Shown: in pieces, positions 40,613-50,254 of the stretch
Numbering within the stretch: the stretch's first letter is position 1
How the letters are laid out: every line of letters starts with the position of its first letter
DNA from: an uncultured Actinomycetes bacterium
Lineage (GTDB): Bacteria; Actinomycetota; UBA4738; HRBIN12
Assembly (NCBI GenBank): GCA_963704725.1
Contig: OY969934.1
Location: 384,001 to 448,000, forward strand
Length of the DNA: 64,000 bases
Direction: 5' to 3'
Made by a program: the position numbers and the translations under genes
The notes under the pieces: model-generated
What the model was told of the DNA's origin: nothing
Databases searched by the model: none
What the model saw: only the letters and a program-made list of their open reading frames with translations

Positions 40613-43600
40613 CTACCGCCCGGCGCCCAGATGCAGGGACGAGCGCGTGGCCTCCGCTCGAGCAAGCGAAGCGAGGTTGCCCTTGCGGCGGTACAGCTCC
40701 GCCGCGGTCTCGAACTCGCCGGTCGCCTGATCCGCCCGGCCGGCGGCCACGAGGACGATGCCGAGGTCGAGGTGGGCGTCGCCCGCCATGTTCAGCAGGT
40801 CGGACCGGTCGGCGAACGCGGTTCCCTCCGCGGCGACCCGCTCCGCCTCTTCGAGCTCGCCCCGGGCCGCGAGCACCTTGGCGCGCACGCCGCGCCACGC
40901 CATCTGCGACGCCACGTCGTCCTCCGCGGTCGCCTCTTCGCTCTCGATCGAGGTGCGCATCGCCTCGTCCAGCTCGCCCTTGCGGTAGAGCGCCTCGGCG
41001 AGCAGGGCCACGGCGGTGGAGAACATGCTCTGCTCACCCATGCGCTGCAGGGTCTCGACGGCCGGTCGAAGGACGGCCTCGGCAGCATCGGCGTCGTCCG
41101 CGAGGAGCATCGCCGCGCCGTAGTGCATGTGGATCGAGGCGAGCCGCCACTCGGTGCCGAGCTCCTCGGCCCGGGCCACGGCGTCGTCGAACGGCCCTCG
41201 GGCCTCCTCGAACCGGCCCGCCATCGCCAGGAGGAACCCCAGTCCGGCCATGGTCTCGGGGTTGGGGCGGCGCGCGTTCGCCAGGCTGCGCTCGGTGATC
41301 TCGAGGCACCGCTCGACGGAGAGCGGACCGTGAGCCACCCCGAGCGTGGCGCGCTGGGCCGCCTCCCGCTCGTCTCCGGCCTCGCGCGCGATGCGCTGGC
41401 CGATCTCGTACGCCTCGACCGATTCGCCGACCCTGCCTCGGCGCCCCAGCGCGTCGCCCAGCAGCCGGTGAGCCGCGGCCACCCCCGGGAGGTCGCCAAG
41501 ACGCTCCAGCGCCCCGACGGCGTCGATGGCGAACCGCTCCATCTCCTGCGTGTTCGTGGCCTCGGGGTTCCGCCAGAATCGGATGTCCGTCTGCTGGAGC
41601 CGGATGCGCCACTCGGCGATCTCGTTGCCCGCCCGGCGGGCGTCCTCCAGCCCCACCTCCAGGACGGCCTCCGCCCGATCCGGCTCGCCCTTCTCGAAGA
41701 GCGCGGCCGCGAGCTGCCACGTGAGCTCGCACCGCGTGGGGTCGTCCTCGCCGAGGAGCGCGAGAGCTCGTCCGAGGAGGCCGGCCGCCGCAGGCATGTC
41801 GTCGCGGGCGAAGGCGCGAGCCCCTGCCGATCGCAGCCGCGCCGCAGCCCGGGCGGCGAGCGAGGACGACCAGGAATCCGAGCGCCCCAACTCCGAGCGG
41901 TAGGCGTGGGCCGCCTCGAAGTGATAGCCGATGATCTCCTCCAGCTCCGGCAGGCGCCCGCCCGCGCCGCTCTCCAGGAGATCGCCGAACGCCTCGTGCG
42001 CCTCGGCGCGAGCCGACTTCGACATCGCGCGATAGGCGACGTCCCGGATCAGGTGGTGGCGGAACCGGAACGTGCGGCCCGAGATGGGCGACTCGCGCTC
42101 CAACGAGATCATGTCCTTGGTCTCGAGCGCATCGAGCAGCGGGGCGAGCCGCTCGCCGTCGGGGGTGAACCCGGCCAGATTCTGTTCGGTGAACTCGGTC
42201 CCCACGACCGACGCGTCCTCCAGGAGCAGGCGCTCCGCGACGCCGAGCCGATCCAGACGGGCACCGATCAGCGCCTGGATCGTGGCGGGGATCGGCACCT
42301 CCGCGAAGTCCGGCGATGCCACCCATCGGTCCTGTTGCCACTGCAGGAGCCCATCCTCGACGAGGATCGCGACGAGCTCCTCGAGGAACAGGGGATGGCC
42401 CTCGGCGGCTTCGAGGATCCGCTCCCGCACCGCCGGGTCGATGTCCGCCGGGCCGAGGAGGTTGTTCACGAGCTGCGCGCTCTCGTCGTGATCGAGCGGG
42501 GCGAGGGACAGGTTCGCCGCGTTCAGCCGTCCCCCGCCCCAGCCCGGCCGATCCTCGGCGAGCTCGGGCCGCGCCAGGGACGCCACGAGCAGCGGGATGT
42601 TCCGAGCGGTGACGACCAGGTACTCGATGAGGTCGAGGAGCGTCGTCTCCGCCCAATGGATGTCGTCGAACACGAGCACGAGCGGGCGGCCGCCGGCCGC
42701 CGCCTCCAGATACCGGCGGATGGCCCAGAAGATCTCGTCCGGCACGGGTGACTTCCCGCTGAGGCCGAGCACCGAGGCGATCTGCTCCTCGATGAACGCG
42801 GCGTCCTCGATGCCCCCGATGACCCTGGCCACCTTCTCTCTCGCGCGCGCCGGTTGGTCCCCGTCGCCGATCCCCGCCGCCTGGCGGACCATCTCGGCGA
42901 TGGGGAACAGCGTGATGTCGCGCCCGTACGAGAGGCATCGACCGGTGAACGCGGTCGCCTCCTGGCCGAGCCGATCCAGGAACTCGACCGCGAGCCGCGT
43001 CTTTCCCACACCCGTGGCGCCGAGCAGCGTGACGAGCGAGGCGGTCCGTTCCCGGGACGCTCGCGCGAACGCCTGCTGCAGCACCGCGAGCTCGTTCTCC
43101 CGGCCGACGAGCGGAGAGGCGAAGCGACGGCCGGCGGGGACCAGGAGGGGACTCTCGACCAGACGGAACGCCGCGAACGAGGACCCGTCCGCGTCGAGCA
43201 GGAGGATCTCCGCGGGCTCGATGCCGGCGGAGCGCCGCACGAGCCTGGCCGCGGCGTCGTTCATGAGCACCTCGCCGGGCTTGGCCGACCTCGCGAGGTG
43301 GTCCGCCTCCTCGAGGGGCGTGACGGACAGGAGTCGCTCCTGTCCGTGGGAGGACTCGACCAGGACCTCTCCGAGTGAGATGCCGACCCGGAGCGTGGGG
43401 CCCGTGCCTTCGTCCCCGGCGCCGATGCCGGCGGCGTACCAGGCGCACAGCTCCGACGCCGCGCGGACCGCGCGGACCGTGTCGTCCTCGTGCACCCGGG
43501 GCGTGCCGAAGACCGCGCTGATCTTGCCGAGCACGGACTCGTGCACCCACCCCCCGTGCGTCTCGACGATCGCGCGCGCCTGATGCATCGCCTGCTCGAG

Positions 43601-49635: not shown

Positions 49636-50254
49636 GGGGGCGGTTGGCAGCACCATCGCCGCTCCCGCGACGGTGTCTCCCGGGGGCCGGCGCCGACGCC
49701 GTCGGGCTCCACGTCGGAGTCCGTTCGCGCATAGCCGCGACGACCACCCAGATGAGCCCGAGGTAGACCAGGATGTCTCCCAGGCTCACGACCTGGGCGA
49801 TCGGCGGTGGGACCGGGATCACGTCGGCGAGGAACGTCAAGTCATCGTCGTCCGTCAGTCGGTGATGCTTGTCGGCCCCTTCGTCGATCAGGATCTGGAT
49901 GACGTCTGACTGCCCGGAGCGCTCGAGTGCGTCCACGCTGACGGGCATGCCGCCGTTCGCGACGATCACGAGCGCGTTGCACGCGAGGCCCAGGCCGACC
50001 AGCGGCATCCCTACTTGCCGCACGTTCACGATCGCGAAGACGAGCAGCAACGCGTAGGAGAGCGCGAGCACGCCCGTTCGGACCAGTACGTCGGTGCCGC
50101 CGTGGCCCTCGGGCAGCGGGAGGAACTGGATGACGAAGCCGGCGATCGCCAAGCCCCACCAGCGCAGGCGTATGCGCCCGAGGTGGGTCAGCCGGCCCCC
50201 GAACAGGTAGCCGAGGGCGACGGCGAGCACGATGACCGAGGCGAAGAGTCGCAT
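49586..50254 (-). CDS. DUF5317-like membrane protein
   Basis: GGR...L....LR.W; N.LVI.ANGGMPV; H....; FLADVIP.P...VSLGD. Confidence 0.8.
   Translation of the reverse strand: MRLFASVIVLAVALGYLFGGRLTHLGRIRLRWWGLAIAGFVIQFLPLPEGHGGTDVLVRTGVLALSYALLLVFAIVNVRQVGMPLVGLGLACNALVIVANGGMPVSVDALERSGQSDVIQILIDEGADKHHRLTDDDDLTFLADVIPVPPPIAQVVSLGDILVYLGLIWVVVAAMRERTPTWSPTASAPAPGRHRRGSGDGAANRPLTPGPPPATRRSGTGP

Follow-up and report, generated by a model that had tools for sequence, protein, structure and literature searches.

The Phr, SHP and XIP pheromones of Firmicutes are C-terminal pieces of small precursors, and they are re-imported to bind cytoplasmic RRNPP receptors. MgrB and SafA have been described as very small single-pass membrane proteins that modulate the PhoQ kinase in the membrane or at its periplasmic face (PMC2789325; PMC8404706). 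The sensor domain MASE9 has been reported with HD-GYP, GGDEF and EAL outputs, and ligand binding within the membrane has been proposed for it (Galperin and Chou, bioRxiv 10.1101/2021.11.05.467447). Here, a stretch of 64,000 nucleotides from an uncultured Actinomycetes bacterium (assembly GCA_963704725.1, contig OY969934.1, positions 384,001 to 448,000; called the window below) was analyzed. It carries a 27-codon gene, pepB, on the opposite strand between two histidine kinase genes, kinase 1 and kinase 2, followed by a gene convergent with kinase 2 that encodes a membrane protein of the DUF5317 family. A first-pass annotation had read this locus as a peptide-signaling system in which a precursor is cleaved in the membrane and a short C-terminal peptide is released and sensed by the kinases.

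A conserved small gene

Conservation of the peptide gene was followed in two sets of loci. The first set comprised 20 kinase-2-homologue loci from 20 genomes of the same order and the window (21 loci), and every one of them (21/21) carried an open reading frame (ORF) of 27-30 codons, between the two kinase genes and in the reverse direction to kinase 2. A perfect GGAGG was present in 20 of 23 peptide-gene copies. The second set consisted of 80 named loci with kinase-2 identities of 53-79%, all from uncultured Actinomycetota; the carriers named there are all uncultured metagenome-assembled genomes (MAGs). The peptide ORF was found upstream of the kinase-2 homologue in 72 of the 73 MAG loci with at least 500 nt of upstream sequence, a convergent DUF5317 gene downstream of it in 72 of 78, and a kinase 1 homologue upstream of kinase 2 in 52 of the 58 with enough flank.

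Fourteen orthologues of the peptide gene (91 pairs) were compared by codon position. Because the differences were distributed as 712/394/1341 over the three positions, this comparison shows protein-level selection on the ORF, and pepB to be a genuine protein-coding gene; synonymous differences (pS 0.61) also exceeded nonsynonymous ones (pN 0.24). The start codon, the Shine-Dalgarno sequence (SD) and the stop are retained across families whose kinase 2 is 43-79% identical to that of the window. Of the other five frames of the same DNA, two were interrupted by stops in most of the 16 sequences (14 and 15) and three in fewer (3, 4 and 7).

The peptide family is 27-35 residues long, with one hydrophobic span. 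The ORF ended 0-6 residues after the profile match in 31 of 32 rows, the exception being a row that is a 6-residue fragment; because it ends there after every real match, the translated frames show that the peptide is always free-standing and never fused to another protein. No Pfam or NCBIfam model matches it. The gene is thus a conserved component of these loci that gene callers have overlooked.

The first-pass annotation had described two SD-bearing ORFs for 27-residue peptides with a common C-terminus, and the common C-terminus stood: a degenerate pattern for GAHIRF followed by a stop matched exactly two sites in the 3.45-Mb genome, with 0 matches for a reversed-pattern control. pepB is intact with its 27 codons, but the second ORF, pepA, is 83 nt long, which is not a multiple of 3. 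Read from its SD-preceded ATG, pepA comes to a stop after 14 codons; the AGGAHIRF tail is encoded in the -1 frame, whose sole in-frame start is a TTG at 44596 without SD. A DNA alignment of pepA with two intact 27-codon orthologues from same-genus genomes, one of them unpublished, contains a single 1-nt gap, at codon 10. Because of this gap, pepA is judged from the alignment to be a frameshifted copy or pseudogene, or an assembly indel, in this assembly. The extra pepA copy beside a gene for a SARP regulator was seen in three genomes, that of the window and the two same-genus genomes (L037 and L038).

Linkage to MASE9-type sensors

The two kinases had been called paralogues, and this was borne out by HATPase_c and the RALFNRxQ motif in both, with HisKA_3 in kinase 2 additionally. 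Kinase 2 scored 21.0 bits against MASE9 (PF20972), below the Pfam cut-off of 24.3. With hhalign, its sensor domain aligned at a probability of 94% over 190 columns with a protein that carries a MASE9 match of 32.5 bits (L068), and its N-terminal domain at 96.8% with that of an HD-GYP protein and at 78% with that of another peptide-linked sensor.

Using a peptide profile, the six-frame translation of the genome was searched, and the matches were pepB and the pepA tail, with weaker matches beside two other DUF5317 genes and a fifth sensor. The genome holds four modules of peptide and MASE9-type sensor (modules A-D, Table 1). The GGDEF-EAL protein of module C gives no Pfam MASE9 match, and its N-terminal domain is 37% identical to that of kinase 2. 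The peptide of module D has a longer tail of 12 residues, still ending K-W-G.

A phylum-wide survey of 301 genomes was then evaluated, in which DUF5317 occurred in 112 genomes, the extended peptide profile in 88 (E <= 0.05) and the sensor-domain profile in 172. Among the 35 peptide matches with E<1e-6, at least 32 lay within 1 kb of a sensor match, at least 30 of these on its 5' side. By rough arithmetic, the probability that a random site is this close to a sensor gene (1 kb) is well below 1%, and of the 33 matches in the chance-level bin (E 0.01-0.05), only 2 were that near a sensor and 3 near DUF5317, among the matches listed. Read from the other side, 45 of the best 50 sensor matches (of 360) have a peptide within 1 kb. 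The geometry of the matches with E<1e-3 was co-directional upstream in 28 cases, divergent upstream in 23 and on the 3' side in 2, among the matches listed. Linkage to DUF5317 was also evident, with at least 28 of the 35 matches with E<1e-6 within 8 kb of a DUF5317 gene and all 35 in DUF5317-positive genomes (112/301 overall).

The neighboring sensors have varied outputs. Pfam scans identified MASE9 (32.5 bits), MASE9 with GAF, MASE9 with HisKA, MASE9-GGDEF-EAL, three HD-GYP proteins (HD_5) and a HisKA kinase. A single-sequence tblastn of the sensor domains against diverse DUF5317 loci gave 2/29 and is insensitive; Pfam scans and the profile search were used instead. Peptide genes were also found with sensors having no DUF5317 within 1.5 kb, and 6 loci with DUF5317 and no MASE9 neighbor, all in low-G+C (guanine plus cytosine) small genomes, had no peptide. 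As far as gene neighborhoods can show, peptide-family genes lie 5' of MASE9-type sensor genes irrespective of the output domain. Because this adjacency holds across outputs, and because DUF5317 without MASE9 has no peptide, the same neighborhoods show the MASE9-type sensor domain to be the tightest partner of the peptide and DUF5317 to be a frequent third part. The enrichment of small ORFs beside DUF5317 genes and RALFNRxQ sensors (kinases, GGDEF-EAL and HD-GYP proteins) anticipated by the first-pass annotation was therefore found, and it is strong.

The DUF5317 protein

The membrane protein had been called DUF5317-like and is a true DUF5317 (PF17248), with 112.3 bits against a gathering cut-off of 25 and a match to model positions 2-150 of 151. 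In its AlphaFold2 model (pLDDT 85.8), five membrane helices carry a small alpha/beta insert at residues 103-157, which by the positive-inside rule would face outward. The invariant polar residues of the family are Q43, S66, N77, N93, N100, K129, H130, D144, S157 and D160. Most of them would lie in the outward insert or near the outer ends of the helices, at the level that the AGGAH of an N-in peptide is predicted to reach. Full-text literature searches found no mention of DUF5317 or PF17248, and a single relevant paper on MASE9. The family also reaches beyond Actinomycetota, as control genomes of Thermotogota and Deinococcota carry it.

No protease family, motif or fold was matched by DUF5317 in Pfam, Foldseek, VIA-align or a PDB sequence search. 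Foldseek retrieved nothing from the PDB at E <= 0.001, the best VIA-align matches (Z up to 5.9) were generic helical bundles only, the PDB sequence search returned spurious sigma factors (best E 0.14), and a search of the ESM Atlas gave no usable match. A relation to LspA (signal peptidase II, Peptidase_A8) was considered on the basis of Z scores of 4.8-4.9 and a lipobox-like LAG-G motif, and it was rejected. hhalign against 18 LspA sequences gave 3.3% in global mode and 10.5% over 22 columns in local mode, and the SxGD/FNxAD pairing, considered in view of the two catalytic Asp motifs, gave 0.2%. The structural matches to LspA by VIA-align (6ryp, Z 4.9, root-mean-square deviation 4.5, 94 aligned residues; 5dir, Z 4.8, 3.5 and 91) are within the generic helical background. 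Each of the 25 genomes searched has an LspA of its own (25/25).

Peptides were detected at only 4-5 of 29 diverse DUF5317 loci (within 1.5 kb on either side, using a narrow profile and a hydropathy filter), and the peptide is therefore not a universal neighbor of DUF5317. Several other arrangements of the gene were seen. In low-G+C small Actinomycetota genomes, it lies directly upstream of secA at three loci (L060, L064, L067) and directly upstream of an HMGL-like/homocitrate-synthase-like gene at three more (L059, L061, L063). At L083:1381-3180, DUF5317 and an MFS_1 domain share one 600-residue frame, which may be a fusion, and a family peptide is encoded divergently upstream of it (L083:1154-1246).

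Membrane subunit or processed signal

The peptide consensus is M-x-L-x-K-R-x-A-x-A-x-G-S-L-x-A-L-x-L-A-G-G-A-H-x-[RK]-x, that is, a basic N-terminus, a hydrophobic stretch of 17 residues rich in small residues, and a conserved A-G-G-A-H-x-[R/K]-x end. Among 62 distinct module-A peptides, A8, A10, G12, S13, L14 and A16 of the hydrophobic stretch are each kept in 49-60. These conserved positions favor a subunit that stays in the membrane, as does the intramembrane ligand binding proposed for MASE9 (Galperin and Chou, 10.1101/2021.11.05.467447). We tentatively favor the reading, which we hold to be somewhat short of probable, that the peptide is an uncleaved single-pass micro-protein and serves the MASE9 sensor as an accessory subunit, in many cases alongside DUF5317. 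The recurrent gene neighborhoods point to a three-part sensing unit of peptide, MASE9 sensor and DUF5317.

In such a unit, the peptide would insert N-in/C-out, remain in the membrane and act as an accessory or co-sensing subunit packed onto the MASE9 domain and, in loci that encode it, onto DUF5317. The AGGAH end of the peptide would sit at the outer membrane boundary, at the level of the conserved motifs of DUF5317 as placed by the positive-inside rule and the model. The complex would then set the activity of the attached kinase or cyclic di-GMP enzyme, as MgrB does on PhoQ. Complex prediction with kinase 2 (residues 1-262), DUF5317 (1-182) and the peptide gave ipSAE values of 0.10 and 0.01 (mark, 0.32), which speak neither for nor against binding.

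Several observations weigh against a membrane-retained subunit. The most conserved part of the peptide is its C-terminal A20-G21-G22-A23-H24-x-[RK]26 and not the helix core, and the AGGA end, with small residues at -1 and -3, resembles a signal-peptidase site. Conservation in the hydrophobic stretch does not mark a single helical face: its moment at 100 degrees was 0.149, the mean of the shuffles was 0.150, and a fraction of 0.46 of the shuffles reached the observed value. The conservation alternates with a period of 2, a pattern that fits an extended enzyme-bound segment as well as a helix with contacts on several sides. Peptide genes also occur in tandem, in 2-4 copies, an arrangement more typical of secreted precursors. 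The survey included unpublished genomes, and its related genomes are non-independent samples. Its adjacency counts used 150 of the 360 sensor matches and 150 of the 160 DUF5317 matches, so they are lower bounds. In favor of the subunit, peptide distances correlate with those of the kinase-2 membrane domain (r 0.73) more than with those of its cytoplasmic half (0.61) or of a flanking control gene (0.29), but this is weak evidence, confounded by shared history and by rate differences between segments.

The strongest competitor is a precursor model along the lines of the first-pass annotation. In it, the 27-mer is cut between AGGA and H by DUF5317 or by signal peptidase I, and the released C-terminal peptide of 4-7 residues (H-aromatic-R/K-x) is sensed outside by DUF5317, the MASE9 sensors or both, as an autocrine or quorum signal. 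We consider this model unlikely but worth keeping, because of the invariant AGGA-H-x-[RK] end, the period-2 conservation and the tandem copies. The peptide has the n-h-c layout of a Sec signal, and A23 is invariant in 31/31 aligned members of the wider family. In the module-A peptides, R6, A20, G21 and A23 never vary and 61/62 keep each of G22, H24 and [RK]26, with variable positions 25 and 27, 34 distinct tails and tail lengths of 4 residues in 52 peptides, 5 in 9 and 6 in 1. Paralogous modules of one genome have different tails, the triad of peptide, sensor and DUF5317 recurs, and invariant S, K, H and D of DUF5317 would lie in or beside its small outward-facing domain.

Against the precursor model stand the empty protease searches with DUF5317 and the failed LspA comparison (hhalign 3-10%), and no AgrB or ComQ homologue, exporter or adjacent response regulator was found in the locus. 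A mere signal peptide would not need the conserved positions of the hydrophobic stretch, and the outer loops of MASE9 are described as short and poorly conserved (Galperin and Chou, 10.1101/2021.11.05.467447). Peptide genes beside sensors without DUF5317 nearby, the broken pepA as one of only two peptide genes in the window, and the scarcity of SARP among related loci (4/80) do not fit it either. In sum, the part of the first-pass interpretation that held is the enrichment of small ORFs beside DUF5317 and MASE9; cleavage by DUF5317, release and sensing from outside found no direct support. A narrower version, with DUF5317 as a new membrane peptidase that matures the 27-mer between AGGA and H and a released 4-7-mer or a retained fragment as the MASE9 ligand, seems to us slightly less likely again. 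If true, a DUF5317-matured peptide would be a new signaling route of Actinomycetota that feeds histidine kinases and cyclic di-GMP enzymes directly.

Among the tandem arrangements, arrays of 4 (G235:C81:1499-2114) and 3 (G022:C3:1482527-1483227) peptide-profile matches were seen directly upstream of a gene pair made up of DUF5317 and a sensor.

It is improbable that the peptide is a reporter substrate, whose insertion or turnover mirrors the secretion machinery or the membrane state and is read by the MASE9 sensor and DUF5317 as a measure of envelope stress. The signal-peptide-like design agrees with it, as do the varied sensor outputs, which a general physiological cue would lead one to expect, and the position of DUF5317 directly beside secA in 3 of 6 scanned low-G+C small-genome loci. 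However, these secA-adjacent loci have neither peptide nor MASE9 and may reflect plain synteny, and the invariant His and the basic tail residue are left unexplained. Finally, although pepB is located in the divergent region 5' of kinase 2 and the pepA copy of this genome is broken, the small ORFs can hardly be anything but genes, as opposed to a kinase 2 promoter or operator with a common tail left by local duplication, since third-position changes dominate with pN much below pS, start, SD and stop are kept across distant families, two of the five other frames are rich in stops, ORFs of this type are also found in different orientations and next to different sensors, and no Rfam match was found in the region.

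Locus organization and neighboring genes

The features of the locus are listed in Table 1.

Table 1. Features of the window locus and the four peptide-sensor modules of the genome.
Feature	Position	Strand	Description
SARP	40613-44476	-	Trans_reg_C 4.6e-09, BTAD 4.6e-37, AAA_16, TPR (Pfam)
pepA	44633-44715	+	Frameshifted small-protein gene copy, AAGGAG site 5' of ATG
Kinase 1	44966-46603	+	Orphan histidine kinase: MASE9-like polytopic N-domain, dimerization and histidine phosphotransfer domain (DHp; LHDDL), HATPase_c
Hairpin	46594-46636		15-bp, G+C-rich, between convergent kinase 1 and pepB
pepB	46664-46747	-	Intact gene for a 27-residue predicted single-pass membrane micro-protein MNLIRRAAIAVGSLAALVLAGGAHIRF, GTG start, GGAGG SD 8 nt upstream
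IS3-family element	46939-48146	+	In the divergent promoter region of pepB and kinase 2; not part of the system
Kinase 2	48211-49635	+	Orphan histidine kinase: MASE9-type domain, HisKA_3, HATPase_c
DUF5317 protein	49586-50254	-	Membrane protein, convergent with kinase 2; Pfam 112.3 bits
Module A			The window locus: kinase 1 / pepB / kinase 2 / DUF5317
Module B			Peptide divergent from DUF5317, then MASE9-like HisKA kinase
Module C			Two peptides, then DUF5317, then GGDEF-EAL protein
Module D	C1:945948-946055 (L223:3448-3555)	-	35-residue peptide, ~130 nt upstream of MASE9-like HisKA kinase, no DUF5317 nearby

The true start of kinase 1 is probably downstream of 44966, because its orthologues align from about residue 60-120. 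The hairpin between kinase 1 and pepB has a folding energy of -37.5 kcal/mol (z = -5.07; 0 of 200 shuffles equally stable) and is likely a shared transcription stop of the two genes. The 3' ends of the kinase 2 and DUF5317 ORFs overlap by 50 nt (49586-49635). No Rfam family was found in the region, and the tRNA scan was also empty.

The kinase block had been described as less GC-skewed than its flanks; what differs is the G+C content (about 0.60-0.62 against 0.70-0.73) and not the skew. G+C at third codon positions is 0.66 and 0.72 in the kinases and 0.86-0.92 in the neighboring genes. In all related loci compared (49/49), kinase 2 has a lower G+C than the sequence downstream of it, despite conserved synteny. 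Because MPAB accompanies the cassette in 69 and HAD in 66 of the 80 loci, this conserved chromosomal synteny indicates that the cassette is not a mobile island.

An IS3-family insertion sequence that splits pepB from kinase 2, absent from the first-pass annotation, was identified. It has two ORFs, orfA (47002-47280, HTH_Tnp_1) and orfB (47310-48125, rve and rve_3), and terminal inverted repeats at 46939-46969 and 48116-48146 with arms of 31 nt that are 77% complementary. The genome has no second full copy, but 88 bp of the left end recur with 100% identity at C1:839746-839833. The element is upstream of both genes, at 65 bp from kinase 2 and 190 bp from pepB. Without its 1208 bp, the spacing between pepB and kinase 2 would be about 255 bp, similar to the 253-292 nt that separate the starts of the peptide and kinase 2 in one same-genus orthologue. 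With pepA frameshifted and the insertion sequence placed as it is, the unit may be decaying or under faulty regulation in this genome.

The identity of the regulator upstream as a SARP/BTAD protein was confirmed by its Pfam domains, but its proposed role in the system was not upheld. Because only 4 of the 80 related MAG loci have a SARP gene, gene content across these loci marks it as a lineage-specific neighbor and not a conserved part of the cassette. At one locus (L051), a SARP gene separates kinase 1 from kinase 2, and both kinases have retained a peptide copy.

The locus has no adjacent cognate response regulator, the nearest GerE matches being at genome positions 347931 and 558669 (window, 384001-448000). 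Searches of the 80 loci with NarL-type queries gave 0/80 for two queries and 25/80 for a third, for which all six examples printed fall in the stretch of a neighboring OmpR-type regulator. This regulator (39879-40898) forms a separate pair with an sCache kinase (38475-39818). On the other side, a UvrD_C_2/AAA_19 helicase-like ORF (50331-51995) adjoins DUF5317 and is found in 36 of the 80 related loci.

Comparison with known systems

The agr (AgrD/AgrB/AgrC/AgrA) and ComX/ComQ/ComP/ComA systems resemble this locus in that a small ORF adjoins genes for two polytopic proteins, a membrane protein of its own and a histidine kinase. Unlike in those systems, the neighboring ORFs include no AgrB or ComQ family by Pfam, with DUF5317 as the sole match for the membrane protein, and the window locus has no response regulator. 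The kinases here are of the HisKA_3 type, the candidate mature peptide would have only 4-7 residues, and the hydrophobic part is the longer conserved part. As with Phr, SHP and XIP, the candidate active peptide would come from the very C-terminal end of a small precursor whose start resembles a signal peptide. Unlike for those pheromones, the receptors linked to the peptide are membrane sensors, and the locus showed no Opp or RRNPP genes. Should the peptide prove to be a processed signal, it would represent a new signaling class.

The MgrB/SafA-PhoQ systems are alike in pairing a very small single-pass membrane protein with a sensor, although the contact proposed here is suggested by gene arrangement. 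By size (below 50 residues), single hydrophobic span and free-standing gene, the peptide fits the small membrane-protein regulators of sensors, which form a functional class and not a homology family. MgrB has 47 residues and no sequence relationship to the peptide, for which Pfam and NCBIfam were empty, and the outward part of the 27-mer would be only 4-7 residues, unlike that of MgrB. Unlike PhoQ, the partner is not one kinase but a sensor domain common to kinases, GGDEF-EAL and HD-GYP proteins, and a third membrane protein, DUF5317, is usually present.

The linkage to a small ORF and to DUF5317 goes beyond the description of MASE9, in the available text of which no partner genes are named (Galperin and Chou, 10.1101/2021.11.05.467447). 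In a term search of the accessible text of a 2025 review of bacterial small membrane proteins, MASE, Actinobacteria, Streptomyces and diguanylate did not occur. MASE9 and DUF5317 are families without known ligand or function, and the conserved 27-residue gene offers them a concrete partner. Small membrane proteins that accompany sensors are already known; the 27-residue family linked to MASE9 and DUF5317 appears, judging from the profile and database searches, to be new and previously unannotated. Its tie to the sensor domain holds across kinase, GGDEF-EAL, HD-GYP and GAF outputs. We know of no earlier small-protein partner of a sensor domain family, as opposed to a single kinase. If the peptide is indeed a membrane-retained subunit, it would be, in contrast to MgrB with PhoQ, the small-protein partner of a whole sensor domain family.

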